Shown here piece after piece: positions 26,979 to 64,000 of a stretch of 64,000 nucleotides of DNA (its first letter is position 1; each line of letters starts with the position of its first letter). Made by a program: the position numbers and the translations under genes. Source of the DNA: Sphyrna mokarran (Eukaryota); contig JAGIQG010000016.1 in assembly GCA_024679065.1 (NCBI GenBank), forward strand, positions 2,790,001 through 2,854,000, read 5' to 3'. The notes below the pieces were generated by a model. It was not told the DNA's origin, searched no databases, and saw nothing but the letters and a program-made list of their open reading frames with translations.

Positions 26979-27009
26979 GTAAATACAGGCTTTCTTTGTC
27001 ATACATTAC

Positions 27010-29681: not shown

Positions 29682-29930
29682 TTGATTTGATTTATTATTG
29701 TCACATGTATTAGTATACAGTGAAAAGTATTGTTTCTTCTGCACTCTACAGACAAAACATACTGTTCATAGAGAAGGAAAGGAGAGAGTGCAGAATGTAG
29801 TGTTACAATCATCGCTAGGGTGCAGAGAAAGATAAACTTAGTGCAAGGTAAGCCCACTCAAAAGTCTGATGGCAGCAGAGAAGAGGCTGTTCTTGAGTCG
29901 GTTGATATGTGACCTCAGACTTGGTACCTG
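29682..29930 (-). mobile_element. Rex1/Babar-like 3' end
   Basis: Reverse complement of the 3' UTR and tail seen at 12950-13200. Confidence 0.75.
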
Positions 29931-31057
29931 ACTTCAGACTAGTTTGTGTGCATCTTAAAGTAAATTAGAGACATGGAGTGTTTTATGGAGGGGATTCCGC
30001 TTTCTGAAATTAATGATTAACACGATGTTCAACTTTTCCCATTATGTCCTTACACAGGCAGGTTGAACTGCCTGTGTAAATGTCACATTGTATTTACACT
30101 CTCCTACCCAGTGGTGGTACTGGAGCACTTCTTGTGTCTCTCAGTTTCTCAACCTGTATCAAGCTTAAACCCAACTCTACGGCCTAATTTGTTACACATT
30201 CTGTTAAATCATTGGAAATAAGCTATTTTTTTCAATAGCAATAGATTTGATCAATCAATCTATTGAAACATTCATCAGTGCTACCTGAAGAGTTTACATT
30301 CTCCATGATATAGAAATAGACTGGATGTTAGGAATTTGATATTTTCCCAGAGCATCAGGATCTTCTGAAATGTGCTGTCAGCTGGTGTGATGGCTGCTGA
30401 ATCTCTGTGGCCTTCAAGAGGGATCTAGAGTGGTTCGTGACTCGAGGACAGAACAAGGAAGCATAGAATGATACAGCATAGGAAGAGTCATTTGACCCAT
30501 CAAACCTGTCCTAGCTCTCTTTGAAAGATCAAATTATAAAAATGCTGTAATGGAAAGGGGTAAGGATCGTGTAGAAGTTCTGTGCCTGAATTGGGAGAAG
30601 CTCAATTTCAATACTGTTAGATTAGATCTGGCAAACATAGACTGGAAGCAGCTACTTGTAGATGATTCCACATTTGGAAAGTTGGAGTTTTTTAAAAGTG
30701 AAATAAAGACTTCAAGGCCAATATATTCCTCTACTACTAGCTGGGTTAGCCACATTCCTGAACACAATTAGTTGGAAAAAATCATAAACTGGTGTACAAC
30801 AGCAGAGGCAGCTGCTTCTCTTATCTGTCTTGGATACATGAAAACAAGTCTTATAACACTCTTCACAAATCTCTTAGTGTTACAAAGTTCATTATCCCTT
30901 CTTCATTGGTCCTGGAGTTTCATCTCTGAATTACATAACATTTCCAGACTGAAACAGGCCATCTGTTCCATGTCAGTGTTCCTGCTTCACAAAGGTCTCC
31001 CCCCTTCATTTCACTCACATCACCATATCATTCCATTTGTTTCTCCCACTTGTATTC

Positions 31058-31595
31058 AACCCACATTCTCCCCATAGGAGTGAGTCCCATATTCTCCCCA
31101 TTCCCTCTGGGAGTCAGTCCCACATTCTCCTCATTCCCTGTGGGAACAAGTCCCTCATTCTCCCCATCTCCTGAGACAGTGAGCTCCGCATTCTCTCTAC
31201 TCTCAGTAGGAGTGAGTCCCACATTCTCCCCACTCCTTGGGAGAGTGAATTCCCTATTCTTCCCACTTTCTGTGGGAGCCAGTCTCACCTTCTCCCCACT
31301 CCCTGTGAGATTGAATCCCACTTCTCCCCACTCTCTGTGGGAGTGAATCCCACTTCTCCCCACTCTCTGTGGGAGTGAATTCCACTTCTCCTCACTCCCT
31401 GTGGGACAGAGTCCCATGTTCTCCCCACTCTCTGCAGGAGCGAATCCCACATTCTCCCCACTCCCTGTGGGAGTGAATCCCACTTCTCCTCACTCCTTGT
31501 GGGAGCCAGTCCCACCTTCTCCCCACTCGCTGTAGGAGTGTGTCCCACCTTCTCCCCACTCCCTGTGGGAGTAGGTCCCACGTTCTCCCCACTTT
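31058..31595. repeat. 32-33-bp minisatellite (cccacattctccccactccctgtgggagtgaat)n
   Basis: About 16 tandem units, each with a cccac…gtggg inverted pair; unrelated in sequence to the other 33-mer. Confidence 0.85.
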
Positions 31596-31993
31596 CTGGG
31601 TAAAGTTAGGAACAATTTATTAAATGAGAAAGGTAAATTCACAGTGGGGGGTTCCGTCGCAATCCTGTGTAATTTGCACATGTGGATTTCCAACTTGCTG
31701 TAAATATTTGTAGACATTTCTACAACGTAATCCTGTACACAGCAACGAAGAGAAACATAGAACAAGGAGTCAGATAGAGCACTTCTCCACTCTCACATTG
31801 ATCCACACTGAGGCGAAAGTTCAGACTGTCCACTCTCAGAATGTTTCCATGAAAACATTCCTGATCCATTTAATCCCAGAGGATGGATCAATATTACAGC
31901 AAACAAGGCAGTGATATGAAGCTTAATGGTTTAGCCAGAGTGAGAGATTGAAAGTGGAGCGTAAGTGATGGTTTCTTTCTGTGTGTTTTTTAG

Positions 31994-32133
31994 ACAATGG
32001 AGAAGAAACTCTGAACGTGATGCTGATTCTGGGAATGCGAGCTGTGATATTTACTGTGGGTGTCGTTATCACTATCGCTGGGGTTTGTGCCTGGGAGCGA
32101 CAAACAGTGAAAGGAAGTGGACAGAATGTTTGA
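31994..32133 (+). pseudogene. Transmembrane plus short-tail exon with intramembrane Arg (activating-receptor type)
   Basis: Acceptor gtgttttttag|AC; (D)NGEETLNVMLILGMRAVIFTVGVVITIAGVCAWERQTVKGSGQNV*. CGA Arg at 32038-32040; no Tyr motif. This exon itself is intact. Confidence 0.7.
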
Positions 32134-32219
32134 AGCTTTGTACAGTAACAACATCTGTCAGTCAAGACAAGTAACTGTGTTTAAGTTGCAATGAAACCAC
32201 TCAGTGCTCCTGGTTAGAA

Positions 32220-32810
32220 TCATTTCAGAATCAAAGTGATTCTAACCTGGCAGCGGAGGAGGCCATTTCACCCACCTAGTCCATACTATCGCTCTACATC
32301 AATCCAGTCAGTTCCATTGCCCCCGTTCTATCCCCTTATCTGAAAATTTATTTCCCTTGAGTTTCCACCCAATTTCTTTTTGAAATCATTCATCATTTCT
32401 GCTTCCACCCGTCTCGTGGGCAGTAGGTACCAGGTCATGACCACTCATTGGGTGAACTATCCCCTTCCACTTCCCAAAACCTAAATATGTGCATGCCCCA
32501 CACCCTGCCCCACCTCAGTCCTTGTTCCATCAGCTGACGACAACACGTCTTCATTATCTATCTTATCTAAATCTGTCACCATCTGGTACACCTCAATCAA
32601 ATCTCCCCTCAATCTCCTTCACTCCAAGGAGAATTACTCCGGCTTCTCCAATCTGAATGAGGTGGGTAAAATCCCCTTATCCCTGGACCTATTCTGGTAA
32701 ACCTCCCTCTGCGCCCCCTCAAGGACTCTGCCATCCTTCCCAAAGTGTGGGGGCCAGAACTCAACAATGTTCAGCATAACATCCCTGCTTTTTGTGCTCA
32801 GTCCCTCTAT
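32220..32810 (-). mobile_element. Old CR1 3' fragment
   Basis: EFWPPHFGKD…LEGAQR motif. Confidence 0.6.
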
Positions 32811-33207
32811 TTCTGAAAATCTTATTCTTTCCATCAGCATAAACTGCAATTTACAAGCAGAATGTCATCAGCAGACAGAGAGTAATGGAACATCAGATGT
32901 ATGCTTCTTAATGTACAAAGAGGAACCTAGAACCAGAGATTCTCCTTCTTTCCCTCAGCAAGCTGAAACTTTTCCTTATTCTTGCTGCTCTCCAGTCCTG
33001 CTGTGTAGACACATCATAACTAAGACATTGTCTCACTGTGTGCAGCCAACATGGTCAAATAGTAATCAATAGGAATGTCGCTCAGCTTCATAATAAGATC
33101 AGAACGTGCTTTCAGAATGCTGCACCTTTCTCATGCTGGTTTAGATTTTCAGAAGCATATGGGTTATGAATAATATTACATTTATTAGTGATTAAAATGC
33201 TCAGCCT

Positions 33208-34150
33208 GTTTTGTATGAGGGTATCTGGATGAGGGTATTGAAGGATGGATTAGTAAATTTGCAGATGACACCAAAGTCGGAGGAGTGGTAGATAGTGAAG
33301 AGGGGTGTTATAGTTTGCAGAGAGACTTGGACAAGTTGCAGAGCTGGGCCGAGGGGTGGCAAATGGAGTTTAATGCGGAAAAGTGTGAGGTAATTCACTT
33401 TAGCAGGAATAACAAATGTGTAGAGTATAGGGCTAATGGTAGAACTCTTAATAGTGTTGATGAACAGAGGGATCTTTGTGTATATATGCATAGATCCCTG
33501 AAAGCTGGCAATCAAGTCGATAAGGTTGTTGAGAAGGCATATGGAGTCTTAGCTTTTATTGGTAGGGGGGATTGAATTTCGGAGCCGCAACGTCATGTTG
33601 CAACTGTACAAAACTCTAGTGCGTCTGCACTTGGAGTATTGTGTACAGTTCTGGTCCCGCATTATAAGAAAGATGTGGAGGCATTGGAGAGGATACAGAG
33701 GAGGTTTACCAGGATGTTGCCTGGTATGGAGGGCAGGTCTTATGAGGAGAGGCTGAGGGATTTGAAGTTGTTTTTGTTAGAAAGAAGGCGGCTAAGAGGA
33801 GACCTTATTGAAACATATAAGATGATTAGAGGTTTAGATAGGGTGGACAGTGATAGCCTTTTTCCTAGGATGGAGAAAGCTAGCACGAGGGGACATAGCT
33901 TTAAATTAAGGGGTGGTAGTTATAGGATGGATGTCAGAGGTAGGTTCTTTACCCAGAGGGTGGTAAGGGTATGGAATGCCCTGCCTGCTGCAGTTGTAGA
34001 TGCGCCAAGTTTGGTGGCGTTTAAGAGGTTAGTGGATAAGTTTATGGATGAAGAGGGAATGGTTTAGGTTGGAGGGTCATTGCTTTTTCTTAATTGGTCG
34101 GCGCAACATCGAAGGCTGAAGGGCCTGTTCTGCGCTGTAATGTTCTATGT
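33208..34150 (+). mobile_element. Young 5'-truncated CR1 (same subfamily as 42677-46990)
   Basis: KFADDTK…RLRGDLIETYKMIRGLDRV…WNALP; nearly identical to the 3' end of the long copy. Confidence 0.9.
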
Positions 34151-34439
34151 ATACCTTCACAGAATAAAACTTATTTTGATGCAAATTCTTGGCTCAAATT
34201 TGTTTTTTCCTGTTGTAGCCAGACAGAATTGCATGCTGGTAAAAGCTGCCAATTCGAGGAGTTGGGGGTCTCTAACCAAATATGGGCACAACAAGGACAG
34301 CCTCAACACCAAAGAGAAGTGAATTAACTGAAGTAATGAGATCTTATCTGATGAGACACACACCAGGAAAGAAGCTGCCTCACTGGAATAATGAGGTTGT
34401 TTCTGCTGAAATGACAGTCACATACCTCCTGATAGTCTT

Positions 34440-36550
34440 GACGGTAAAAACAATAAGAAATCTCACAACATCAGGTTAAAGTCCAACAGCTTTATTTGGT
34501 AGCCCAAACCACAAGCTTTCAGAGTGCTACCCCTTTGTCAAGTGAGTGGGAGATTTTGTTCACAAATAGGGCATATAAAGGCTCAAACTCAATTTACATG
34601 AATAATGATTGGAATGCGAGTCTTTACAGCTAATCAAGTCTTAAAGGTACAGACAATATGAGTGGAGGCAGGGTTAAGCACAGGTTAAAGAAAAGTGTGT
34701 TGTCTCCAGACAGGGCAGTTAATGAGATTTTACAAGTCCAGGCAAATCATGGGGGTTACAGATAGTGTGACATGAACTCAAGATCACAGTTGAGGCTGTC
34801 CTCATGTATGCAGAACTTAGCTATCAGTCTCTGCTCTGTGACTCTGCACTGTTGTGTGTCATGAAGGCCGCCTTCAAGAACACTTATCTGAAGATCAGAG
34901 GCCAAATGCCCATGACCGCTGAAATGTTCCTTAACAGGAAGAGAACAGTCTTGCCTGGTGATTGTCAAGAGGTGTTCATTCATCCAAGGTTGTAGCACCT
35001 GCATGGTCTCCCCAGAGTACTACGGCTTGGGACATCCTTTCCTGCAGCATATCAGGTAGACAACGTTGGCCGAGTTGCAAGAGTATGTACCGTATGCCCG
35101 GTGGATGGTGTTCTCATGTAAGATGATGGCATCCTTGTTCATGATCCAGCATATCTTGCAGAAGTTGCTGTGGCAGGGTTATGTGGTACGGTCACTATTC
35201 TCCTGAAGGCTGGGTAGTTTGCTGTGGACAATGATGTGTTTGAGATTTGCGATAGTTTGAAGGCAAGAAGTGGGGGTGTGGGGATGGCTTTGGCAAGATG
35301 TTTGTTTTCATCAATGACATGTTGAAGGCTCTAGAGAAGATGTTGTAGCTTCTCCTCTCCGGGGAAGTAGCGGATGATGAAGGGTATTCTGTCCACTTTG
35401 TCCTGTGTTTGTCTTCTGAGGAGGTCGGTGCGGTTTTTCGCTGTGGCGCATTGGAATTGTCGATCGATGAGTCAGGCACCATATCCTGTTCTTATGGGGC
35501 CATCTTTCAGTGTCTGGAGATATCTGTTGCGATCCTCCTCATCTGAGCAGATCCTGTGTATATGGAGGGCTTGGCCATAGGGGATGGCTTCTTTAACGTG
35601 TTTAGGGTGTTAGCTAAAGAAGTGGAGCTTGTGGGCTTGTGGTATAGTGAAGTGCTGAGGTGATTGTCCTTAATGGAGATGTGTGTGCCCAAGAATTCAG
35701 AAAGTAGTCCATGGTGAGTCTGATGGTGGGATGGAACTTATTGATGTCATCAAGTAGTTGTTTCAGGGATTGTTCGCCATGAGCCCAAAGGAAGAAAATG
35801 TCATTGATGTATCTAATGTATTGCAGTGGTTGAAGGGCCTGTGCGGTGAAAAAGTCTTGTTCAAACTTGTGCATGAAGATGTTGGCATATTGAGGTGCGA
35901 ATTTGGTCCCCATTACTGTTCAGTGTGTCTGGATGAAGACATTGTGGTCCAAGATGAAGCTAATGAGTTGTAAAATTGCATCTGGAAACTGGTGTTGGCA
36001 TTGATTATTGAGGCAGTTGCGGCAATATCATCATAATGCTGGTGTAGAGGGCCGAGACATCCATTGTGATGAGGAGTGCTCCTGGTTCAACTGCTCCATG
36101 TGTGCTGAGTTTTTGTAAGAAGTCACAACAAAAATTCTTTGTAAAACGGATTTCAGGATGCCCTCGAAGTAGCTGGAGAGGTTCTCACACAGGGTCCTAT
36201 TGCCCAATACGATGGGATGGCCAAATGTGTTTGCCTTGTGTATCTTCAGGAGTCAATAGAGATCTCCAATGTGGAGAGTACGTGGGATGCAATCTTCAGC
36301 GTACCCAGTGGTGATGGGAGAGTCTACTGGGAAGAGGAAGTGGAATACGCATAGATCAGATTCCACTAAAATACTGTGTGAAATGGGGAGAGAAGGTGAG
36401 GCGATGGTTTGAGATTCCAGGGACCACGAGACTAACTAGTGGGGGAGAAAAGGACTGAATGGGTCTGTGATTGGCGAGATCGGGAATGAAATTGTTCTCG
36501 AGTGATAACTTGATGGTGAACCACTGGGGGCAGAGATTCAATCACCTCTC
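34440..36550 (-). mobile_element. Penelope-like element (RT plus GIY-YIG), degenerate
   Basis: MGTKFAPQYANIFM…RYINDIFFLW RT motif; SANVVYLICCRKGCP GIY-YIG region; hammerhead remnant near 34510-34545. Confidence 0.85.
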
Positions 36551-47099: not shown

Positions 47100-47236
47100 G
47101 CAGTTTCTCACTGTTTGTGTACTTCCTCCTTTTGATACATCATCAGTTTCTAAATAAACACACAGTGGGAACAGCACAGGAAGAGGACATTCAGCTCAAG
47201 CAGAGGGTCAGTAGTTACTCTGCAGGCAAAGAGTGG
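47100..47236 (+). promoter_or_regulatory. Gene B: putative ETS/PU.1 promoter and 5' non-coding exon
   Basis: ACTTCCTCCTTTT at 47121-47133 (reverse complement AAAAGGAGGAAGT, PU.1-like); CAGGAAG near 47177; strong donor GG|gtaagt at 47236. Confidence 0.5.
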
Positions 47237-47646
47237 GTAAGTAACGGAATGATTAATTCACTTCCACGAGTGTTTTGTTGATATTTTGACTTTATAAAGA
47301 TAGATTCCAATGATTGATACCTTTGAAAGGTTTGTATTGATTATTGAGAGGCTCAATCTTGTAGTACAGAACATCTTTCTAGTTCAAGGAATGGGGGATT
47401 TGCAGAAATGTGAATTTTGAGATAACCCGATGTGGTGAAAATCCTTCATTGTTTCTCTTTTTTAAAGCCCTGTGACACTTTGCAGAGCACCTATCATCCC
47501 ACACTGAATCCAATAAGTTTGTGAAGACCTTGTCTAAAAGCAATTCTGATCTCTTGAGAGCTGTCAGACAAGAGGTGAGGTCTCATTAACTCCTTTCTCT
47601 TTCATAGCTTGAGAGAAGAAGCTGGTGAAACATCAGTGAGAGGACA

Positions 47647-47686
47647 ATGATTGGGAAAGCTTACTTCCTCCTGCCACTTCTGCAAG
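47647..47686 (+). CDS. Gene B: signal-peptide exon, coding part MIGKAYFLLPLLQ-(V/A) (exon spans 47608-47686)
   Basis: Acceptor cctttctctttcatag| at 47607; ATG at 47647; LLPLL leader motif as in CD33-related Siglecs; phase-1 donor G|gtaata, in frame with both downstream V exons. Confidence 0.85.
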
Positions 47687-48559
47687 GTAATATCGTCAGC
47701 TTGGACAGATTTATGATTAATAGTCTTTGTGAAAGATCATTTTTATTGAGCTCTGATTGGGAAGCAATTCAGCAGTGACCCAGTGTATAAATTCACACCA
47801 AGTCGCATTCATCCATCACCCTGTGCTCACTGATATACACTGACTCCCTGCCTGACAGCAGAGTTAAGCAGAGCAGGAGGAAGATGAGAATCTTAAAATT
47901 GAGGTGTTGCTGGGAGCCAATGTATCTCAGAGAGTGACTGGATAATGATTTGATTAGAGGAACAGGGGTAAAAACTGGGAGAAAAATTCTAACCCAATAC
48001 GAGAGCACCAATGGCAAAGGCCTGAAATGTGTGTCTTTTGCTAATTTTAGTCAGAATTTTCCATGACGGCAATATAGCAGCTCCTAGAATAGACATCACA
48101 CCTCCTGTCCATTCTCACTAGTTTTCAGAACGTCAATAAGGGTGCAAGATAACTGAAAAAGAGGAAGGCAGTGTGTAAAGTTGTGAAATATTTTGAGTTC
48201 TCGTGATTGCCTCTGAGCTGCTGTAAAGCTTAACTATCACACAATCTCTGAGCTTTGCACTCTGAGGGAAGCAAATAACTCACTATCTAAAAAGACTCTG
48301 GAAGCAGATTCAACAGGAACTGTCCAGAGGGGCAATTGGATCAATACTTCAAAGGGATATTTACAAGGCTATGGGGCAAAGAGTAAGGAGTAGAGCGGGA
48401 CAAATTGGACAGATCCTTCAAGGAGCCAACACAGTCAGGATGGTCGAATGGCCTTGTTCTCTCCTGGATCATTCTACAATCTGATGATTTAAGACCCATA
48501 TCTGCAAGTTCTCAGATTGCTGCTGAAGCCATGGGTGTTTCAGTAGGACAGAGAGTGAG

Positions 48560-51500
48560 AGAGTACTGGTGTCATGTCCATGTTTAGTTTCCATTACGAG
48601 AGTTTATAGAGCCAATGAAGCCATCAGTCTCTCAGGTAGAGAGGTAAACTACTGGTGCACCTAGATCTTGTAATGGTGACCTTGTCTGGAAGTTTATTTA
48701 ATTGCTTGCAATGATCTGTGGGATCCTCATTCTGAATATTCTTCCTGGTTTCATTTGGAATCTAATCTGCAGTGCTCCAGTGATTGAAGAATTGGGAAGA
48801 AACAGCTTAGTCCTCGGATACACCTCACCATTCCACCTTTGTGTAGCACGACTGCATAGAACCCTTATTCTGGACAAATCCTTCTGTGAACTTGTCCCAG
48901 CTGTAAACCTGGCAATACCATACCTGCATTTCCTTGTGGACATTTGTCATCTTCTCTTGCAGTTTTAAATGTTGTTGTCTAGTTTCTGAGAGAGTAGAAT
49001 GGATAAGATTGAGTAAATTTATATGCAGTGGTCAAATATGAGCTCTGCTAGTGATGGCATTTAAAGATGTCGGTCTCAGAAAGAACTTTGCAATGTGCAG
49101 ATCTTGCTTGGTCTGTCTACATTTGAGGATTAAGGGTTTCACTCTGCAGATTATTCATTTCAGATCTAGAGTAATGAGAAGTAGTGTGATCAATATTTCA
49201 CTTCTCACTCAAATCCTAAATTGGCTTACCAGTAATTTTCAGACCATTATCTACTATAATTTCTCTGGGCACACCAAATAAACTGAAAATAACACGTAAA
49301 GTGTGTGCGACAGGTGTGTTTGGTGTGTTGTGCAATTGTCGCATAATGGGGTATTTGGTAAAGTAGTTGTTGGCGATGATTAAATCAGTATCACGGACAT
49401 AGAAAAGATGACCTGCAATTTTGAAAAGGGATAGGTAGGAACTTCATGCAAATTCAGTTTATTTTTTCTTGTAGTGACTTGGTAGATGCTCTTGACATAG
49501 TTCATACTTCTTGATGATGACTCAATGTCATTTGACTTCCCCAGCCAATGGATTGCCTCTTTTGTGAGTCTTCTCATCCAATCAGTGGCCATGTTTGAGT
49601 GATCAAGTTGCTGAAAAGTATCAGGTCATAAAGATTCTAGTATGATTGGCTGGCCTGCCTTTAAAAATGATTCTGCAAGATGCTGAACTCATCTTAGACA
49701 TGCTGACCTGAATCAAGCAATTTTTCACTGATATGTGGTGATTTTCCCCCAAAAATTCCAAATTCTGAATTTGTGTGAAAACTGGAGGCAATTATGTTGG
49801 TTTATTTTGCATGATTTTCAGAATGAATCTCCCACAGACCGTGCATCACAGAGTACTGAGCGAGTTTCACTCTGAAAATCAGTGTACTGGGAATATTCCC
49901 ACTGACAGACCGCAGCATAGCAATTGTCTGGGCTACTGAGCATGCACCATCTGTCCGAGCAGAGAACAGCGCATTGCACAATAGCCCCGCAATACCAGCC
50001 TCCTGATCGCTGGCCAACTTCACAACACCACATCTCTACCTCTACGACCCATCAACAACTCCCTCCTCCCCAGAGGACGGCCTCCCGAACCTCTCCGGGC
50101 CAGTCCCAATGTCATGTCCACACCCCACTCCCCACCAGCAGCCCCGATCTGCTCAACCTACCCGCCAGCCTCAACCTCCCCTTCACCCCTCTTCTCCCAC
50201 TGCTTGCCCTCCCGCCACATCCCGGATGGTCAGTCCCGATCACCCCCATCTCTCCCTTTCTCTGACTGCGATTCTCTGGCACAGTGGCATCTGACGCCCC
50301 CACTCCTACCAAAATTGCATCTTTATAGGCCCTGCCCCCAGAAGGCTATGCTCCCTTGGCACAGTCTGCTGCCCCTTGGACAATATTAGGCAGCTAGGAT
50401 GGCCAATCAGGTTGGCACTGCCTGGGGCACCCCTCCACCCCCATCCTCCAGGGGGGGCCTCAATGGCATCTCTTCATTCCAGTGGGGTCAGGCTGCCAGT
50501 TCTCTGCTCATGGGGAGCTGTTGTAAGACTCGCTGAAGTGAACCACTGCTGGTGAACGGGGGAGATGCTTGTGGTCTCGGGGAGTTCAATCCCCGGCCCA
50601 CTAATTAAATTGTAATATTTACATCAGCTCTGTGCCAGTTAATGGTGTGGAGATGATAACTCCACAAAACTCTGGAGCCAGAAATGCACTGATGCCTTGG
50701 TATCCAGCGGGGAGTCTGCTAAATGCTCCGCTGATGTCACCTGACCTGTTGAGCTGCTAATGCAGCACAGAGGGCTGGGAGAACAACCCACCTCGTTTTT
50801 CAGTGTTTGTCGTGTTGAAACCTACGCTGTTTCTTTTTGCATCTGCTAGCCTTTGTATTGTGCAAAATGTATCGGATCAAATGACACCCCTGCATCCTCT
50901 TGCAAACTTAACAATGTACAGCATCCTATTAATTTTGTTGGAACCTTCCTGGTTACTTTAGATCATGAACTAAGTTGGCATGAGTAGTTTTCAGGGTTCG
51001 TCTGCATCTGGTATCTGATTATTCGTGTGAAGTCCCACAGGTGGTAGACCTGAATCACTGGGCCTTTAGTCTCCCCAATGTAGAGTATCTGGAACACCCA
51101 GAAGGCATGATTGTATTTGCACTCCAGGATTATGGAATTCACGCGTGGAATCAATGAACAATTGTGTGCTGGAAGTTTCACAGTGGCAGCTTTCACCATG
51201 GCCTTCCATGTATGTGGATACATGTCATTTAGAATTCACAGGGGCAGTGTATTAGCACTTTCCTCTGTATCAGTCTTAGCCAATGAGTAGTTATCAGCCT
51301 CCTGACGCTAGATAATTCAAACTTTGGCAAACACTTCAGACTGTGACAATATTGGTGTTTTCCATGAGATTAACAGTCTGAAACATGCAAAATTTTCAAC
51401 AATTGTATAATAACTGTTGCACAAACTCTGACATTTTTAGTTTAGTTTGTGTGCCTAGAGATCATTATGGATGACAGTCTGTAATTAATTTTGTATGTGT

Positions 51501-51700
51501 GTAACGTGAACTATCAATTAATGCTTGTGACCTCATCATGTACCCACTCTCATGTTTTGGATTGCCAATAACTTTGTGTCCATGTTTCATGTTGAAACAT
51601 TTCCCGTGCACTCAGCAGCTGTGATTTCCACACTCTCCAACACTGCCACTCTGTTATGGACAGACCAAAATACCGAGAGTAGTCTCATTGATATGTAGTG
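48560..51700 (-). mobile_element. Highly degenerate Gypsy-like pol remnants, interrupted by a MITE
   Basis: HWLGKSNDIE…LHEVPTYPFSKL integrase-like fragment at 49380-49592. Confidence 0.4.
49735..50790. mobile_element. GC-rich MITE-like element
   Basis: Ends ggtgattttcc / ggagaacaaccc; subterminal tttg.gtgaaaactgga shared with the copies at 55635 and 58319. Confidence 0.55.
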
Positions 51701-51840
51701 TAATGTAAGGCTGCTCGCCATGTTGTAGCTGTACTGAATCTTCCTTTCAAACCAAGATCATGTTGTGCTTCGGGAATGATAAAAAGGTGCCAATAATTCA
51801 AAAGGGATTTTGTAACTGTTTTGTGGATTCATTTATTTAG

Positions 51841-52120
51841 GGGGCACACTAGTTAGCACTGCTGCCACTCAGTGCAAGTACCCGGGTTCAATTCCGGCCT
51901 CAGGTCACCGTCTGAGTGGAGTTTGCACGTTCTTCCCATGTCTGCATGGGTTTCCTCTCACAATCCAAAGATGTGTGTGTTAAGCTGATTGGCCATGCTA
52001 AATTGCTCTTGAGTGTCAGGGGGATTAGCAGAGTAAACGAGGGTCATGAGTGGGACTGTCTTTGTTTCAGACTCAGTGGGTCAAATAGCCTCTTTCTGTG
52101 CTGTAGGGATTTTATGATTT
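51841..52120 (+). mobile_element. HE1-like V-SINE
   Basis: gttagcactgctgcc…cccgggttcaattccggcc (B-box) and V-domain. Confidence 0.8.
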
Positions 52121-52129
52121 AGACAAGGC

Positions 52130-53700
52130 ACATGAGGACAGATCTTCTTCTTTGGTGATCACTTGCTAGCGAGTATGATTGTCTAACTCCGAACGTGTGT
52201 GTTACTGGACACGGGTTCTGTGCAGTCTTGCATGGCCAATGTGCCAATCCCAGAGCTGTATCTTTAACCTCACACTCGGCAGGCGTTTCTGGGAGGTGGG
52301 TTTGGTCCTTGGGCTTGAGATCATTGACATTCCTTTCTAGGCTCCTTCTCCAGAACTCCTCTTGCCATCGGGTGTCCTCGAGGAATTGTCACTCCAATCA
52401 CTTCCAAATGAGTCTCTTCTCAGCAAGGGTATCTCGGGCATTGGCGTCCATGCTGCATTTCTTGAAGTAAGCTTGCAGAATGTTTTTGGAGTGCTTTCTT
52501 TGACCTTCTGTTGTTCTGAGCCTTCTTTGTACTGGGTGATTTGCCCTTATAGATTCTGACATCAGAAGCAGGTGGTTGTCCGAGCTGAGTTTCTTTTGGG
52601 TAATTATGACCTCAATGCTCGTTCTCTTGGCTACTTCAAGGTCGTTGATGTTGGTAAAACTGTCCTCCAAGAAGATGTGGAGAATTGTCTCAGACAGTGC
52701 TGATGGTACATCTCCAGGATCTTGAGGGGACATCTGTTTGTGTCCAAGTTTCTGAGCCATATAGAAGAGTTGGGAGGATGACTGTCTTGTAACAAGGATC
52801 TTTCTATCAGCACAAACATAGCAGTGGTTGAAGACTCTTGTCCTTAGGCACCCAAAGGCAGTGCTCGTAGATTATCTGCAATATTGGATCTCGGCACTGA
52901 TGTCAGTCTTCAGTTAGAGGGAGCTCCCTAGTTATGGAAATGTTCCATGTATGGGAAGATTTTTCCATTCATCATGATGGAGGATGATCTTGCCCTGGAT
53001 TTGTTGGTAAAAGACTGAAGTCTTCCTCTTCTTTGGTATGCTTCTACAGAGGTGTCATACCAATTCTTTGGTATGCTTCTACAGAGGTGTCAAGTGTGGC
53101 TTGGAGATACTTTTCTGAGAAAGCAGAGATGGCAATGTTATCTGCATATTGAAGTTCCACCAGCAATGTCAGTGTCATTTTCCTCTCGGATTTCAACCAG
53201 TTGAGGTTGAAAGGTTTTCTGTCCATCCTGTAGATGATGTCCACTCCACTGGGAAGTTGGTTCTGGACAAGCTGAATGAGAGCGCTGATGAAATGGGCAG
53301 AGATGTGATGACACATCCTACTTGATTGCAGGCCTGACCTTGAAGGTTTCTGTCTTATTTTGTTGATGCGGACTGTCACTGAATTCTTGTCATGGAATAG
53401 TCAGAGGGTGTTAATGAATTTTTCTGGACTGCTAGCCTTTGAGAGGCTCATTCAACCCTTACCAAAAAGCTTTGGTCAGTTTAATGAAGGTCATATAGAG
53501 TGATTGATGTTCCTCCTGGCATTTCTCTTAAATTTGTCGAGCAGCGAAAATCGTGTCCAAGGTTCCGGAAGCATTCTGGAAGCTTTACTTCAGAGTCTGG
53601 GAAAAGGTACCGAGGATTTGGGTAATGGTCTCCTGTTGATGTAGAGCAGGGAGATTCTCAGTCATTTCCACAGTCCTCGTTATCTCCTTTCTAGAAGATG
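52130..53700 (-). mobile_element. RTE-clade LINE fragment
   Basis: VDIIYRMDRKPFNLNWLK…ELQYADN RT motif typical of RTE/BovB-like LINEs. Confidence 0.7.
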
Positions 53701-54252
53701 GTGGTGGCGACAACAGCCCTGAAGACATAATGGGACAGAAGCACGCGGATAGAAAGCTTGAAGACACTAGCGGCAGAGCTGTGTGTGCTGTGTTCTGCTC
53801 AAAATGAAACTGAGACTAGATCACATGACACACTTTCCCTTTAGTGCTGTTATGTTGCTATCCGTTAAACACAAATTACAATAACAACCGCAATCTGAGA
53901 AAGTGAAGATCCAGAAAGTGAGGCTAATTAGTGAACGATGGTGGTGGGAGATCTGAGGGCTCTTAATCCATTGTCCAGCCTGCATACATCTGAATTGATG
54001 CATTTTGCAAACTGTGTGTTGGGTGGAATACCAGCTTCATTCTACTTTACAATAAGGTAATGTAGAATGAACATGTCTACTCCTGTGTCCAGGATTCTCT
54101 TCCATCCATTGTGTAACCTTGGGGAGTTCCTTGTGTGTTCTGGGGATGGTTTACACTGCAGCCACTGTGCACAAGTGGGGGTGAGAATGGATTATTGAAT
54201 CTAAAGAATTTACAAACCAGCCAGTATTAAATGTTGATATTTCTCTCCCCAG

Positions 54253-54606
54253 TTGGATTGTCACAGGATTGGAAAGCAACGACTCAGGCAAAGGTGATTG
54301 CGCTGAATTGTTCGTTTGTACAAATTTCGTGTCATTACAAATATCCATCGCGTTTGGCAAAGAAACCACGGGATCGAATCTGGTTTTACAATGACAAGGA
54401 AATTGCCTTTCACTCCAAGGACCCCAATGCGATATCATCACAGTTCCGCCATCGGACCCAGCTGTCTGGAAATCTGAATGATGGAGACTGTTCCCTGATT
54501 ATAAACAACATCACATGGCGAGATGCAGGAAGATATTTTTTCAGAGTAGAATTTACTGGCACTGATAAATTCAATTACAAACCAGATACCCAGCTTCATG
54601 TTTTTG
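54253..54606 (+). CDS. Gene B: Siglec-like V-set exon V1 (354 bp, phase 1-1)
   Basis: Acceptor ttctctccccag|; donor TTT G|gtaagc. QDWK…VQISCHYKYP…W…FHSKDPN…GDCSLIINNI…DAGRYFFRVEF; essential Arg codon at 54543. Confidence 0.9.
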
Positions 54607-54799
54607 GTAAGCGATGTATTAAAATCAACAATTCATATTCAACACTCAATGGAAAACAACACATCCTAGAGTTTGATTTGCTTGTTTTGTGGCCGTGTTA
54701 AACTGCGTTATTATTTTTAAGCATTTGTCTATTTCTACTCAGAGATCCATTAAGTTATTGTGTTTGATTGAATCAACATTAGAACTTTAACAGAAACCT

Positions 54800-57400
54800 C
54801 GCTGAGGAGTGATGACACTTTCCCCCTTGCTTCTTGACTGCCAGACTTCTCCAATGCCCTCAACTCCACAACGATCTCTACTCCCTCCACCCTATCCCTG
54901 AACTCACGTCTTTCTCCAGTTTCTCCCTCATGTCCTCCATGAGAGCCACATCTTATTCCCTCGACCCTATTCCCAGTAAACTGCTGACCGCACAACCTCC
55001 CCTCCTGGTCTCCATGTGAATTGATATTATTAATGGTTCTCTATCTTCATGTGTCATTCCTCCCTCCTTAAATCTGCCATCATCATCCCTCTCCTCCAAA
55101 AAATAATCCAATACCCCACCATCCTTATACACTGCAATCCCATCTCCAACCTCTTTCCTCTACAAAATCTGTGAATTTATCTCCAGAATTCGCTCCACTC
55201 TTTCTTGGATTCTATGTTTGAATCCCTTCAATAACATTACTGCTACAAGCAGCTCTCATCAAAGTCACTTATGATATCCTGAGTGTTGTGACAAAATGAA
55301 TCTTTCCTTCCTCAGTCTTGTTGACGGGGTCTGCAGCCTCTGATATGGTTCACCATGTCATCCTCTGCCAATGCTCTACAATGTTGTCCAGCTGGGTGGG
55401 ACTGCTCTCACCTGGTTCCATTTCTATCCATTAACCATAACCAGACAATCACCTTGAATGGCTTTGCAATATCACTTTTCACATGCACACTGCCAACACC
55501 CAACTCCACTTCACCCCCACCTCTCTCAATTCCTCCGCACTTGTTAAATCATCAAACTTGTTATCCAACATCCTGCAAGAGAAGGAACAGAAATTACTTC
55601 CAAATAAAGATTGGGAAGACTGAAGCCATTGGCCAGGATACTTCCAAAAAAATTCAAGTGTCGGATTTGCGTGAAAACTGGATAAATCCCTGTTTTTTCA
55701 AGTGGGAATGAAAAAATGAATCTACTGCACTCTGTGCACTTTAGAGTACAAGCGTGATTCATGTGAAAAATGAGGTGGTGGGACCTATTTCCACTGGAGA
55801 AGCCGGCAGCATAGCGCTGAGCGGGCCACTGTGCGTGCGCCGATCTATCAGCGCTGAGATTGACGTACGCACACTGGTCTCTGTCTGCCGGCCTCCCAGT
55901 TGCTCTCCAGCTCAATCGCTGGCCCCCGAAGCATATCTGGGCCTAGCCTCGACTGCAGCTCCATCACTCTCTCCCCCTCCTGGCATCCTGAACCCTCCCC
56001 AGCAAGCTATCTTCCCATCATGATGGCCAGTCCCAATGGCCAGCATTCCTCCCTCTGTCACTCAGCACAAATGCAGAGTGGCAGCAGGACCTCCCATCCC
56101 CACAGATCACACTCCTGGAGGCCTGCACTTTGCCCCCCCCCCCCCCCCCACCCCACATTCAGATCCCCTCCACTTGGCACTGCCTCATTCCCGGGTGGGG
56201 GCAATGCGAAGTTGCCCCCTGTGCATTGGTACTTTGCCCTATGGGTAGAGCCAGTGGCCCCAGGCCAATGGCCAGAGAGCATCTCTCTGTTCAACCCTCT
56301 GGGGGGCTCCGTTGCCCTCTCTTCACTCCAGTGGGATCGGGCCACTAGCTCCCCAAAAGTTAGTTCACCCTGCTGGTGTGAAATACTCCTGGCAGTGGGG
56401 GTCAGCTGGGAAGAGGCTGGTGGGAACGGAGTCTAAAGTCCTGGACACACTAATCATATTGAAATCAGATTTATATGCTCATTTGCATGTATAATACAGC
56501 TCCGCGCTGACTTCTGGCATGGAGCTGAAGCTACCGGAAACCCAGCACTGGGAGATGCCCAGCCCGGAACCCACAGATCGAGTGTTATCTAAATCTCCTG
56601 GTCTGTTGTGTGAAGAAAATCAATGCAGTGTATTGGGAGAATCGTCCCCATTGTTTTCAGTCCCCATTTAAACTCCAATCCCCAGCAACTCGGTCAATCT
56701 GTTCACAAACATGCTGTCACATTTGAGCTGGAGATGATTGTCTGAATTCAGATCTGTAATATCACCAAGACTGTCTATTTGTTCCTGCATAACATTGTCT
56801 GACTCTCCTCAGCTCCTCTGCTGTTGAAACCCTCATCCATATCTTCCTTATTTCCAGACTCGACTATTCCAAAGCACACTGTACCCTTCAATAAACTTGC
56901 TGTCATCCAAATCGTGTTAACATGCCCCAAGTCCCATTACCCTATCGCCCTCCCATGCTCACGGAGCTAAACTGACTACTGGTCAAGCAAAGGCTCCAGT
57001 TTAAAAATCTTATCCTTATTTCTCCCTATCTCAATAATCTCCTCCAGCTCCAGAACATTCTGACATCTCTGTGCTCCTCCAATTCCACTCCCATGAGAAT
57101 AGTATGATTTCTATCATTCCACCATTGGTGCCAGTGCCTTCAGCTGCCTGGGGCCCGAGCTCTGGAACTGCCTCTATAATCATTCTGTCTTTCTCCCTAT
57201 CTCCTTCTATCACTATTTTTCTCTCTCTTTCTCTATCTCTTCCTCACTTTAAGACACTATTTAGAAACCAAACTCTCTGACTGAGCTTCTGGTAACCTTT
57301 CCCCAATTTCTCTCCACGTATCTGGGTGTATATACTGTTTTATAATTCTCGTGTGTATCACTGTGGGCCATTTGAATATGTTAACATTGTTCTGTAGTAT
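54800..57400 (+). mobile_element. Old L2-clade LINE fragments, interrupted by a MITE
   Basis: SYSLDPIPSKLL, KTEAI and SRLDYS-like motifs; L2-type 3' end. Confidence 0.6.
55635..56650. mobile_element. GC-rich MITE-like element
   Basis: Same subterminal motif as 49735 and 58319; ends ggagaatcgtcccc. Confidence 0.55.
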
Positions 57401-57729
57401 CAGTTGCTGTTATTGCATCCCACGCTCCAGTTCCATTCTTATTTTTGGGGTAATACACAAACTCCTTATTTTCCTTGTCAAAATATAATTTTATTATTTT
57501 AATTTGGAGAACGCCAAATCCCAAAGCCAAGCGAGAACTTCCTGATTTACTGAATTTAAGGTGGTTACTCCAACACTTAGACTGTTGAGGGGAATTTCCT
57601 CAGTAATGTGGAGCATTGTGTGTCTTTCCACAAGTGCAGAAGGGTGTTAAGCCTCCAGTGACGGAGACTGGCTGCAAAGGGACCTCTGCCTGAACCTCTG
57701 CCAAACATTTTTAGCGAGGAACATGCTTA

Positions 57730-59420
57730 GTACTTCGAAGACTCGAGCCCATTCTGCTACTCAATAGGAACGTGGGTCATCTAACTGTGGTCTCAACTCC
57801 ACTTTCCTGTCTACCTTCACATGACCCTTAACTCTCTTGTCCATGGAAACTCTCTAACTCAGCCTTAATATATTCAATGACCCAGCCTCCACCGCTCTCT
57901 GTGGGAAAGAAATTCACAGACTAGCCACAATCTAACAGAAGAAATATCCCCTCATCTCCATCCTAAATTTGAAACTTTGCTTCCTGGTTCCGCATTCTGA
58001 CAAGTGGAAATACCCTCTTGGCATCCACCCTGATAAACCCTCCTCAGAAACGTAGATGTTTCAATGACATCACCTTTCCTCCTAAACTTCAGTAAATACT
58101 AGCCAAGCCTGCTCAACCTTCCGTCATCAGATAAACCTTCATCCCAGAAATCAGCCTGAGTGAAGCCTCCCTGCACTGTCTCCAATGCAAGTGTAACCCT
58201 CCTTAAATAAGGAGACAAACTGTAATCAGTACTCCAGAGTGGTCTCACCAATGCCCTGAACAGCTGTAGCAAGACTTCCCTACTTTTATACTCCAACCTC
58301 CCTGCAGTAATAACCAAGGAGGCAATCCTCCCAAATAAATTTGAAGTGTCGAATTTGCAGGAAAACTGGAGGAATTCACACTGATTTACTTCAGTGGGAG
58401 TTCAGAGTAGAATCTCCCACACTTTGTTCAATACAGAGACACCGGCGTGACTATTATTAGTTTTCACAGGGTGGAGCCTCTTCACACTGGAGAGGTTGTA
58501 ATAAGTGGGCCTCTGTGTATGCACAGTGGCCCCACACTGTCAGCCTGAAGTTTGATCGCTGGTTGGCCTGAGACACCCAAAGTGCTGCCCACCCACCCCC
58601 CAAACCCTCCCTCACAGCAAGATCACAACCCAGCATTCATTCACAGGCCAGCCCTGAACCACACTCCCCCCAAACCTCCTTGCCCAACCCACCCCGATCA
58701 CTGACCTGCCTCCAACCCCACTGATCTCTATACAGAATGATAGTGGGAACTTCCACACCCCGCCCCCACCGGCCAATTGCCCTTTATGCCCCATCTCTAA
58801 ACTCCATCCTCTTGTCATTGGCCCATGCCTGATGGGTGATGCAAAGGTGCTTCTTTGACATGGGCACTTTACCTCTGGTGCAGTGCCAGGAGCATAGGCT
58901 GGCAATCCCAAGATGCCTATCCCAGAGAGCACCACATCCTCTGCCACTGAACATTCTGGGGGACCCCACTGCCCTCCCTTCATTCCAGCATGGTCAAGCT
59001 GCTAGCCCTCCAAACTTGGAGAGCTACCTTCATCCCCGCTGGAGTGAAGCATTCTGGCTGGGTGGAAGATAATAGCAGACCTGGAGAATTCAGTCCCGGG
59101 CCCGCTGATAGCATTTGAATAATATGTAAAATATGATTTAAGTGCTAGTCCCACCTCCCAGCCTAGTGGCCTGGGAGATGCATGTGCGGTGTGAACGCTC
59201 CTGGGAGCGCTATGAATTAACAGACATATGATTCTCCTGGTCCTCTGCATTAAAACATTAGTGCAGTGGGATGGGAGAATCAAGGCCCAACATTTATCTT
59301 CCTATTCACTATTGTGACTTTCTATGATTCATGGACAACGATACCCAAACCCTCGATATCACATCCTATAGCTTCTCTCCATTAAAATAAATTCTGTTTT
59401 CTATTCGTCGTGCCAAAGTA
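57730..59420 (-). mobile_element. Old CR1 3' fragment split by a GC-rich MITE (58319-59289)
   Basis: LEYKSREVLLQLFRALVRP; MITE ends ggcaatcctccc / gggagaatcaaggccc. Confidence 0.6.
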
Positions 59421-59531
59421 CTACAGTTCTCCTCCGTATTGACTGTTCCCCCAATTCAGTCCCATCTGTAAATTATAAATAAGAGAGTTTACAAATCATT
59501 CAGTGTTAAATATTGATATTTCTCTCCCTAG

Positions 59532-59885
59532 CTACACAGGCACAAGAGTGGAAATGCACCACTCCACAACAGGTGACAGCACAGGAAGGTTTGTGTGTAC
59601 AGATTCCATGTCATTACACTTATCCATCATGTCTAAGAGACCAGCCACGAGCTGGAGTCTGGTCTACTCAGAAACAGCTTAAGGTCTTTCACTCCAAGGA
59701 TCCCAATCACGCAACAGGACAGTTCCATCATCGGACCTGGCTGTCTGGAAACCTGCTAAATGGCGACTGTTCCCTGATTATAAACAACATCAGACGAGAA
59801 GATGCAGGATCTTATTATTTCAGAATTGAATTTGACAATGGTCCCAGCTATACTTTTCAACCTGCAACCCAGCTTCATGTTTCTG
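59532..59885 (+). CDS. Gene B: Siglec-like V-set exon V2 (354 bp, phase 1-1)
   Basis: Acceptor ttctctccctag|; donor TCT G|gtatgt. VTAQEGLCVQIPCHYTYP…GDCSLIINNIRREDAGSYYFRIEF, a classic CD33-related signature; essential Arg codon at 59822. Confidence 0.92.
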
Positions 59886-60322
59886 GTATGTGCTGCATTA
59901 TAATTATTCAATAATTCACACTGAGCACTCAATGGGAAATAACACAAGCTGTGATGTTTACAAATTGTTTTCAAACTCAAACTTATAGTTTGTTCCAAGT
60001 CACAATTTAAAGGGAACAACTGTAATCATGATTACTGATTTAACACAGGCGCAGACTGAAAATGATGACTGACAAATTAAACTGGTTATAGAGTGAACAA
60101 GATGGGAAAAACAAATACAAATTAATAAATGGAAATTATAGTGTAACATTAACAGAATGAAGAAATCAAAAAAAAATGAAAATGGGGTGAAAGTGGAGGG
60201 GAGAGTTCATGCTCTGAAGCTGTTGATCTCAATGTTCAGTACTGCATGCTGTAAAGTGCCCAATTGGAAGATGAGGTGCTGTTCCTCCAATTTGTGTTGG
60301 GCTTCACTGGAACATTGCAAAA

Positions 60323-63300
60323 GATGTGGAGATGCCAGCGTTGGACTGGGGTAAGCACAGTAAGAAGTCTCACAAAACCAGGTTAAAGTCCAACAGGTTT
60401 ATTTGGCACTAATTTTCAGAGTCTCAGGTTCCTTTGTCAGGTAAATGAGGATTTGTGTTCACAAACAGGTCATACACAGACACAAACACAATTTATAAGA
60501 TAATGATTGGAATGCAAGTCTTCACAGATAATCAAGTCTTAAAGGTACAGACAATGTCAGTGGAGAGAGGACCAAGCAGAGGTTAAAGAGATGTGTATTG
60601 TCTCCAGCTAGGACAGTTGGTGAGATTTTGCAAGTCCGGGCAAGTCACAGGGTTACAGATAGTGTGATGTGAACCCAAGATCCCGGTTGAGGCTCTCCTC
60701 ATGTATGCGGAACTTGGCTATCAGTTTCTGCTCAGCGACTCTGTGCTGTCATGCGTCGTGAAGGCCGCCTTGGAGAACGCTTACCCGAAGATTAGAAGCT
60801 GAATGTCACGACTGCTGAAGTGTTCCCGACTGGAAGGAAACACTCTTGCCTGGTGATTGTCGAGTGGTGTTCATTCATCTGTTGTTATAGCGTCTGCGTG
60901 GTCTCCCCAATGTACCATGCCTCAGGACATCCTTTCTTGAAGTATATCAGGTAAACAACATTGGCCAAGTTGCAAGAATATACCATATGCCTGATGGATG
61001 GTGTTTTCATGTGATAATGGCATCTGTGTTGATGATCCGGCACATCTTGCAGAGGTTGCTGTGGCAGGATTATGTGGTGTCGTGGTCACTGTTCTCTTGA
61101 AGGCTGGGTAATGTGCTGCGGACAACAGTCTGCTTGTGGTTGTGCGGTTGTTTGAAAGCAAGAAGCGGGAGTGTGGGGATGGCCTTGGTGAGATGTTCGT
61201 CTTCATCGATGACATGTTGAATACTCCAGAGAAGATGTCGTAGCTTGTCTCCTCCAGGGAAGTACTGGACAACAAAGGGTACTCTGTCCACCATCTCCCG
61301 TGTTTGTCTTCTGAGGAGGTTGGTGCAGTTTTTTCAGTGTGGATCTGAACTGTCGATCGATGAGTTGAGCGCCATAACCGGTTCTTATGAGGGCATAGGT
61401 GTCTGTTGAAGAAGCCATCTCCTATGCACGAGCCCTCTATGTAACAGGATCGGCTCAGATGAAAGGGATTACAACAGAAACCTATAGATGTTGAAAGACG
61501 CCCTCAAAAGAACAGGATATGGTGCTTGACTCATTGATCGACAGCTTAGATCCACAGCAAAAAACACCAAACAATTGCATAACCTCAAACACATTATTGT
61601 CAGCAGCATGATGTGGCGATGCTGGTGTTGGACTGGGGTAAACACAGTAAAAAGTCTGGTGTTGTCAGAAGCCTGGTGTTGTCAGACTTCTTAACACAGC
61701 AAACTACCCAACCTTCAAGAGAACAGTGACCATGACACTACACAGAACTGCCTCCTCTGCAAGATGTGTCAGATCATCGACGCGGATGCTATCACTTTAT
61801 GTGAGAACATCATCCACCAGATACATGGCACATACTCTTGCAACTCTGCCAACGTCGTCTACGTGATATGCTGCAGGAAAGGATGTCCTGAGGCATGGTA
61901 CATTGGGGAGACAATGCAGATGCTGTGACAATGGATGAATGAACACCACTTGACAATTATCAGGCAAGAGTGTTCCTTTCCATTTGGGGAACACTTCAGC
62001 AGTCACTGGCATTAAGCCTCCGATTTTTGGGTAAGCGTTCTCCAAGACAGCCTTCACAACACACAATTTAGAATCGCTGGACAGAAACTGATAGCCAAGT
62101 TCTGGTCACCTTACTACCGGAAGGACGTGGAGACTCTGGAGAGAGAGCAGAGGAGGTTTACCAGGATGCTGCATGGTATGGAAGGTCTGAGTTACGAGGA
62201 GAGGTTAGGCAAATTGGGACTGTTTTCCTTAGAAAGACATAGACTTAGAGGAGATCTAATAGAGGAGTACAAGATTATGAGGGGTATAGATAGAGTAAAC
62301 AGGGCTAAGCTTTTTCCTAGGATGAACACGAATAGCACGAGGGGTCACGGGCTTAGGGTGAGGGGGGTAAGGTATAATTTGGATGCTAGAGGGAGTTTTT
62401 TCACACAGACGGTGGTGAGGGTATGGAATGCGCTGCCAAGTAAAGTGGTGGAGGCAGGTACTCTGGAGTTATTTAAGAAATACTTAGATGGGCACATGAA
62501 CAGAATGGGAATGGAGGGGTATAGAAAACTGATTTAAAATAGGGATCATGAGCCTTGGGAGTCCCTGGGAAGTATGTAAATAGATGATGATATTGATGTA
62601 CTTGTTTTTATCCTACAGGTGCTTTGGTCCACCTTGTTGTCTAACGAGGGGCATACACGCGATGGGTCGTGAGAGGGCTGCTCTTGGATTTTTTTTGAGA
62701 GTATCCTAGTGCTTCACGTTGTTAGTGTACGCTTGACCTGGACCATTTGATGGGCAACACGACAGCTCAGTGACTATCGCTGTGCTGTGCAGATACATGG
62801 ATTTGGGCCTGTGTCTGTGGGAGTTTGCGCATTCTCCCCGTGCTTGCGTGGGTTTTCTCCGGGTGCTCCGGTTTCCTCCCACATCCCAAAGATGTGCTCT
62901 TAGGCTAATTGGCAAAACAATTCTCCCTAAATTGTCTCAAATTTGGTTTTTAATCCATTGATCTATAAACATGGACAGGGATCGCAGGTAGACGTGGGAA
63001 CGCTGGGGTGGCGGCACCGGCTCGTTGGGCCGAAGGGCCTGTTTCCCGTGCTGTTTTGTTCTTTGTTCTGCGCATGAGGACGGCCTCAAGCAGGATCTTG
63101 GGTTTATTCACACTATCTGTGACCCTCACGACTTGCTTAGGCTTACAAAATCTCACTAAGTGTCCTGGCTGGACACCATACACATCTCTTTAACCTGTGC
63201 TTAACCCTCTCTCCACTCACATTGCCTATACCTTTAAGACTTGATTGTCTGTAAAGACTCACATTCCAATCATTATTTTGTAAACTGAGTTTATGCAGAT

Positions 63301-63415
63301 ATGACCTGCTTGTGAACACAAGTCCTCAACTCACCTAATGAAGGGGCATGAGATTCTGAAAGCTAGTGCCAAATAAACCTGCTGGACTTTAACCTGGTGT
63401 TGTGAGACTTCTTAC
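60323..63415. mobile_element. Penelope-like element in inverted (tail-out) arrangement, with a CR1 inserted in the right arm
   Basis: Minus-strand arm 60323-~61400 (DRVPFVVQYFPGGDKLRH). Plus-strand arm ~61410-62100 resumes at ~63070 and carries a hammerhead remnant cac-CTAATGA…GAAAGCTA-gtg at 63332-63368. Confidence 0.8.
62098..63070 (+). mobile_element. CR1 3' end whose 3' UTR contains a V-SINE core (copy 2)
   Basis: ORF2 C-terminus 62127-62537, UTR, V-domain at ~62810-62930, gggccgaagggcctg tail. Confidence 0.8.
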
Positions 63416-63416
63416 A

Positions 63417-64000
63417 TTGCAAAAGGCCAAGGATGGCCAGTTTGGGACCAATGACCACAATTCTATTGGTTTTAAGTTAGCTATGGAGAATAATAAGTCT
63501 GGCCCAAAAATTAAAATTCTACATTGGGGCAAGACCAATTTTGACGGTATCAGGCAGGAACTTTCAAAAGTTAATTGGGGGAGTCTGTGGGAAGGCAAAG
63601 GGAATTCTAATAAGTGGCACACTTTCAAAGATTTGTTAACCAGGGTTCAGGGTAAACATATTCCTCTTAGACTGAAGGGCAAGACTGACAGAAGTAGGGA
63701 ACCCTCGATGCCTCAAGATACTGAGGTGCTGGTCAAGAAGAAAAAGGCACATCACGTGCATAGGCAGCTGGGATAAAGTTAATCCCTTGAAGAGTATAAA
63801 GGGTGTAGTAGAGTTAAGAGAGAAATCAGGAGAGCAAAAAAAGGACACATGATTGATTTGGCAGCTAAGGCAAAGGAGAATCCAAAGAGCTTCTACAAAT
63901 ACATAAAGAGGAAAAGAGAGCAAGGAAGAGAGTAGGACCTCGAAGGATCAACAATATCATCTATGTGCAGATCCACAAGAGATGGGTGAGATTCTAAATG
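63417..64000 (+). mobile_element. CR1 ORF2 fragment (EN end/tether), runs off the window
   Basis: FGTNDHNSIGFKL…KENPKSFYKYI. Confidence 0.8.

Follow-up and report, generated by a model that had tools for sequence, protein, structure and literature searches.

A single leader exon followed by two Siglec-type V-set exons raises the question of whether both V domains are joined in one receptor or whether splicing chooses which of them is attached to shared constant exons. Such a layout lies in the stretch of shark DNA that we analysed (the window, 64,000 nucleotides, G000:C668:2790001-2854000), and an earlier note on this DNA had proposed both options. We find that the V-V receptor is supported by the single leader, an open frame of 670 codons and a cysteine of V2, while the cassette system is disfavoured.

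Exon structure and predicted product

The gene runs past the end of the window (base 64000), and its C2, TM and tail exons are all found within 25 kb downstream (Table 1), with the identity of the C2 domains confirmed. When all nine coding exons are connected through their AG/GT ends, they read as L-V1-V2-C2-C2-C2-TM-ITIM tail without a stop, and the gene model contains the C2-set domains, the single TM segment and the cytoplasmic ITIM and ITIM-like motifs of a Siglec. The leader exon matches the leaders of database relatives and 8 paralogous leaders. Upstream of it we place a candidate 5' non-coding exon, whose sequence is ~70% conserved upstream of paralogous leaders and is homologous to a cytoplasmic-tail exon of paralogues. 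Two database models (P0003 and P0060) extend from the tail of one gene to the leader of the next, which could be read-through transcription or an annotation error.

Table 1. Exons and introns of the gene, and a second gene of the same layout. Positions without a contig name are those of the window.
Feature	Position	Strand	Remarks
Candidate 5' non-coding exon (predicted)	47166..47236	+	GT donor at 47237
Leader exon	47608..47686	+	AG before 47608; ATG 47647; 13 codons + 1 base (phase 1); GT donor
V1 exon (Siglec V-set, leader-adjacent type)	54253..54606	+	354 bp; phase 1-1; AG/GT ends; stop-free
V1-V2 intron	54607..59531	+	GT-AG; 4925 bp
V2 exon (Siglec V-set, internal type)	59532..59885	+	354 bp; phase 1-1; AG/GT ends; stop-free
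V2-C2 intron, first part	59886..64000	+	Continues beyond the window
C2a exon	G000:C668:2860781-2861074	+	Carries the B-C-loop Cys of Siglec domain 2
C2b exon	G000:C668:2864566-2864841	+	
C2c exon	G000:C668:2867763-2868053	+	
TM exon	G000:C668:2870546-2870642	+	
Tail exon	G000:C668:2873702-2873783	+	
Last exon	G000:C668:2878080-2878304	+	ITIM (ILYANI); ITIM-like motif (TEYAQI); stop
Second L-V-V gene, V exons	start at C668:2181969 and 2181148	-	Same B-C-loop Cys pattern

Both V1 and V2 score above the Pfam cut-off for V-set and Ig_CD22, and their top matches among solved structures are sialoadhesin, Siglec-5/7/8, CD33 and MAG. The essential Arg of the F strand is present in both domains, aligned with that of sialoadhesin, which confirms what had been claimed by the earlier note, and both have the B-E intra-domain Cys pair and lack the F-strand Cys. 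By all sequence features tested, save the shifted cysteine of V1 described below, the gene is a Siglec. Its product is predicted to be an inhibitory receptor with two Arg-bearing, loop-divergent putative sialic-acid sites.

The gene is located in a Siglec cluster, together with six single-V genes with open V exons, a second L-V-V gene and pseudogenes; this survey covered a 380-kb stretch, 520 kb away from the window, and 60 kb of other stretches, and the six single-V genes were counted by their open V exons. One open-frame V exon (C668:1970618, plus strand) has Arg in place of the B-strand Cys, and another (C668:2226786, minus strand) has His in place of the inter-domain Cys. A pseudogene on the minus strand (L005, G000:C668:2894910-2896231) consists of a leader that lacks a donor site, 1 kb before a broken V of the internal type that has the B-C Cys, with no first-type V between them. 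Within the window, a more distant Siglec-type V exon (Pfam Ig_CD22) on the minus strand at ~4390-4746 has Tyr at the place of the essential Arg and is similar to domain 1 of a ‘sialoadhesin-like’ model from a sevengill shark (P0093). On the plus strand at 25935-36363 lies a broken upstream paralogue. Its C2 exon contains a stop and is split by ~700 bp of other sequence, and it is accompanied by fragments of C2 and tail sequence and by a TM-like exon. A further family member, with a single V, lies alone on another large contig (G000:C2:75472170-75504327).

Tandem gene clusters are prone to mis-joins and a second contig duplicates this region, as might be expected if the assembly had fused two genes into one. 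We regard such an artefact as barely credible, since there is no N in the window or in the 120 kb downstream and since relatives have the same layout. The second contig (C865) is identical to the window region over 37,707 bases that include L, V1 and V2, which is redundant and hence weak support against a mis-join; its C2a exon differs at 2 bases. We rejected C865 as an independent copy, given its identity over 37.7 kb.

Comparison of the two V exons

Indeed, two intact V exons of the same length and phase (354 bp, phase 1-1) follow a single leader, as had been described, and nothing else of the family was detected between them. A blastn search that recovers 8 paralogous leaders in the 380-kb cluster stretch found no second leader between V1 and V2, and the V1-V2 intron yielded no ATG-hydrophobic-GT exon and no C2, TM or other family exon. 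Similarly, tblastn with 107 related proteins found no family exons in the L-V1, V1-V2 and V2-C2 introns at E<0.01. Thus the earlier report of no C2, TM or second leader between the V exons is borne out by blastn, tblastn and the exon scan, and the separate leader for V2 that was named there as an observation that would count against the proposal was not found between V1 and V2. The V1-V2 intron has five weakly hydrophobic open stretches, with no family match.

Mutually exclusive V cassettes, with V1 or V2 but never both spliced onto the shared constant exons, would fit the equal length and phase of the two exons, the one leader and a divergence focused on loops. However, inclusion of both V1 and V2 keeps the 670-codon frame, so reading frame does not bar their joining, and the 4.9-kb V1-V2 intron poses no steric bar to it either. 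Moreover, the array comprises two V exons only; the further V exons before the first C2 that the earlier note had suggested looking for were not found by tblastn downstream. The homologous intron flanks of V1 and V2, which that note had brought forward, are real, but the same motifs flank the V exons of single-V paralogues; we therefore rejected flank homology as a cassette signal and attribute it to plain paralogy. In addition, V1 and V2 are different positional types, and roughly one in two of the relatives fetched has a joined V-V model (see below). We consider exclusive cassettes highly improbable.

The products of the two exons are identical at 61/117 residues (whole codons, ungapped comparison), close to but not the same as the 62/119 residues counted earlier by hand, and at 241/354 positions in DNA. 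Their C-C' loops are both short, 8 residues compared to 11-13 in 77/89 rows, and either conversion or duplication could be the source of this common feature. V1-V2 identity is above the best paralogue match of both exons in only 1/20 sliding windows. An initial statement from a first tree, that V1 and V2 are not sisters, was withdrawn, because the constrained tree is 40 log-likelihood units better and is not rejected (p-AU 0.844). The concentration of V1/V2 differences in loops that had been noted before is real in dN (0.75 in loops, 0.21 in framework), but dS rises alongside it (1.30 and 0.31, respectively), and thus positive selection on the V loops is not shown.

If V1 were a decaying or orphan exon, the working product would be L-V2-C2. 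The end branch of V1 (0.69) is the second-longest among 89 tree rows, and a conserved Pro is missing from V1 along with the inter-domain Cys usual there. A neutral exon can stay stop-free with a probability of 0.06-0.45 over 0.2-0.05 substitutions per site, and in the broken paralogue at C668:2895k the leader is followed after 1 kb by a V of the internal type. Nevertheless, V1 keeps its frame, both splice sites, the Trp, both intra-domain Cys and the Arg, and it is a leader-adjacent type in a leader-adjacent place, with no second leader and no gene body of its own. A dN/dS comparison of the two V exons had been suggested by the earlier note; run against paralogues (n=8 for V1), it gives 0.39-0.65 for V1 and 0.48-0.84 for V2, so that V1 is no higher than V2. 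A dead V1 is thus very unlikely.

The B-C-loop cysteine of inner V domains

CD33 has a bond between Cys36 in its V domain and Cys169 in its C2 domain, and its intra-domain pair is C41-C101 (PMC6669322). The Cys36 and Cys169 positions align with the shark V and C2 domains, and the first C2 domain has a Cys at +6 from the B-strand Cys in 98/98 models with a pattern match (of 107). Shark V domains often have a Cys at +7 from the B-strand Cys, in the B-C loop, and its presence differs with the position of the domain. Among de-duplicated domains from 107 shark and ray models (13 truncated domains unscored), it is found in 41/55 V domains that follow another V, 4/61 that follow a leader and 3/14 with other starts. 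These numbers supersede a first count of 35/43 versus 1/46, which was made on cluster representatives only. The counts are not independent. In a tree that ignores the Cys column, the trait undergoes 10 changes, of which well-supported branches provide just 4 independent pairs (sign test, p 0.5); this test is underpowered, and the quick tree behind it is not the best one.

The open V exons of this genome follow the same pattern (internal 2/2, leader-adjacent 0/8): V2 has the B-C-loop Cys and V1 does not. Because V2 carries it, V2 looks built to sit behind V1.

Exceptions occur in both directions. Four white-shark models have a V with the B-C Cys directly after the leader, one of them being an annotated V1-skipping isoform, and 14/55 internal V domains are without the B-C Cys, six of these being ray domains with a C-C' Cys instead. 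In the four-V ray models P0009, P0073 and P0090, the B-C Cys is absent from domains 2 and 4, which have a Cys in the C-C' region; domains 2 and 4 of P0009 also have Lys at the place of the essential Arg. Beyond the fetched sharks and rays, a Cys at +6 or +7 was found in 0/22 tandem-V models, hand-picked from the 31 described below. In four frog tandem-V models (P0123, P0126, P0149 and P0217), the inner V domains have additional cysteines, placed on strand A or in the C-C' region; frogs may have met the same need for pairing in a way of their own.

These positions suggest a mechanism. In Siglecs, the A'-B cysteine of the V domain pairs with one in the B-C loop of the domain that follows, a C2; after tandem duplication of the V exon in sharks and rays, the inner V would have acquired a cysteine at the equivalent position (+7, compared to +6 in C2). 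Each domain could then be locked to the next, and the array would extend in the way that V-C2 does. It is likely, for the family, that inner V domains mimic the partner Cys of C2 and that each V could thereby bond the domain that follows it.

For the gene in the window, such a bond between V1 and V2 is put forward only tentatively and may well not form. V2 retains the usual inter-domain Cys in its A'-B region (model residue 153), with the +6 Cys in C2a as the presumed partner, and has the B-C-loop Cys at residue 165. In V1, the usual inter-domain position is Phe, and a new Cys stands two residues earlier, in an N-C-S sequon (residue 33); the bond, if made, would have to use this shifted cysteine. 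The Phe of V1 and an extra A-strand Cys in V2 (residue 140) therefore make the staple less sure here than in the family.

Structural models are consistent with this geometry. For a V-V relative from the basking shark (P0021), the AlphaFold model (pTM 0.46, pLDDT mostly 70-90 in the V domains) overlays Siglec-10 domains 1-2 at 3.8 Å over 207 residues (Z 14.1). Most MAG, CD33 and Siglec-5 rows lie at 4.8-5.5 Å, one MAG row at 20.1 Å and the non-Siglec two-domain rows at 7.6-17.6 Å; in another relative, the V2-C2 unit fits onto CD33 at 2.6 Å. The P0021 overlay fits the geometry needed for a V-V staple, as an overlay of a stand-in protein that carries no S-S distance, and the likeness may be a mere echo of Siglec D1-D2 in AlphaFold.

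Tandem-V relatives and the joined receptor

Adjacent V domains are found in 56/107 of the shark and ray database models fetched (isoforms included), which come from mackerel sharks, catsharks, smooth-hound, carpet sharks and rays and are automatic predictions with automatic names. These relatives have 2-7 tandem V domains, and the shark models are 55-68% identical to V2, the ray models 48%. The seven-V basking-shark model looks like read-through, which may inflate its V count. Two or more V domains are present in 27/50 database matches to V2, in one of the 27 not adjacent. Among the best 150 matches in a 50%-cluster library, 31 further proteins, all of them automatic models, have adjacent V-like matches; the ten with a named source comprise five frog proteins, two from teleosts and one each from a turtle, a lynx and a monkey (Siglec-12). 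Since tandem-V models are common in sharks and rays and present in frogs, turtle, lynx and teleosts, the V-V layout is no invention of one gene. Thus, of the independently evolved V-V Siglec proposed earlier, the V-V receptor stands but its layout is not private to this gene. A search of titles and abstract openings, in which most subscription journals were not represented and whose negative outcome therefore carries little weight, returned no literature on shark multi-V Siglecs or on the B-C-loop cysteine; the whale-shark genome paper names Siglecs once in its available part.

The exon anatomy, the open frame, the Arg in both V domains, the single leader and the family-wide position bias of the cysteine are all observed, and they are best explained if the main mRNA, with splicing predicted from exon ends, is L-V1-V2-C2-C2-C2-TM-tail; we hold this joined V-V receptor to be probably the correct reading. 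The two loop-divergent sites could raise avidity or confer specificity for two kinds of glycan, and SHP phosphatases would be recruited via the ITIM once ligand is bound. Minor skipped transcripts would be permitted by the exon phases.

A stronger role for skipping, in which the joined form exists, single-V isoforms are abundant and tune valency or specificity, and multi-V relatives gain a combinatorial repertoire, seems unlikely. All Ig exons are phase 1-1 and the omission of either V1 or V2 stays in frame (552 aa each), and phase thus cannot discriminate between the models. White-shark XP_041037230 is L-V2-C2, beside XP_041037226-8, which are L-V1-V2-C2 (assigned to one locus by consecutive accessions and identical sequence), but white-shark V1 and V2 are identical over their first 32 residues, and short reads would therefore fail to separate L-V1 from L-V2. 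Catshark isoforms X1 (4 V) and X2 and X3 (3 V, different first V) have a common leader, C2 and tail and presumably share a locus. In contrast, 15/20 isoforms of one basking-shark locus were examined, and all keep identical seven V domains. Skipping would also disturb the cysteines: L-V2-C2 would expose the B-C Cys of V2, and L-V1-C2 would join to C2 a V without the usual Cys. There is a precedent in CD33, which tolerates skipping of its V exon (PMC7992807), and hence a skipped form is not precluded by a Cys left without a partner.

With the joined receptor as the preferred reading, one may ask whether it extends to a shark and ray Siglec subfamily of chains of 2-7 putative sialic-acid-binding V domains, disulfide-stapled through the C2-like B-C-loop cysteine, subsets of which are spliced to vary valency and glycan specificity. 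We regard this as rather doubtful; if true, such stapled chains with subset splicing would make an innate glycan receptor that is modular and polyvalent in a way that no described Siglec is.

Comparison with known systems

Like CD33 and CD33-related Siglecs, MAG and sialoadhesin, the shark gene has the B-E Cys pair, Phe at the place of the F-strand Cys and the essential Arg. The A'-B Cys of V2, with its presumed partner in C2a, likewise resembles that of the CD33-type V-C2 unit, and the tail has an ITIM and an ITIM-like motif as in these Siglecs. CD33-type Siglecs differ in having a single V, with the partner Cys on C2 and not on a second V as proposed here. CD33m skips its sole V exon, with no choice between V exons (PMC7992807).

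Primate Siglec-12 shares with the shark gene two V-set domains in tandem. One paper (PMC7876704) calls it the only Siglec with two V-set domains, and the two V domains are also stated in PMC6288428 and PMC12654080; the earlier note had likewise treated Siglec-12 as the exception, in agreement with PMC7876704 but contradicted by the tandem-V database models. The shark gene keeps both Arg, whereas human Siglec-XII is without them (PMC7876704), and V2 of a snub-nosed-monkey Siglec-12 model (P0187), unlike shark V2, has no B-C-loop Cys. The identity of V2 is 55-68% to shark single-V and multi-V genes and 34% to the monkey model. This sequence comparison points to separate origins of the V-V layout in the shark gene and in Siglec-12.

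The RefSeq ‘Siglec-12-like / Siglec-13-like’ models of sharks and rays have the same leader, V, C2, TM and tail exons, and from these the gene differs in the shortened C-C' loops of both V domains and the shifted cysteine of V1. In cartilaginous fishes, Siglecs with tandem V domains that keep the binding Arg look commonplace, and database models show such proteins again in other vertebrates; polyvalent Siglecs may be a repeated solution and not a primate oddity. The position-biased cysteine provides a marker that separates first from inner V exons in the annotation of clusters, and a handle on how a V domain adapts to its place inside a chain; it also takes away most of the grounds for expecting cassette splicing at this locus.

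Clustered protocadherin and Dscam1 arrays place tandem homologous exons before shared constant exons, with many alternatives and with a promoter for each or enforced exclusion. The shark gene has tandem homologous exons too, but they are two, follow one leader and are joinable in frame; a first exon or leader for each variable exon, as in the protocadherin type, is not what we find.
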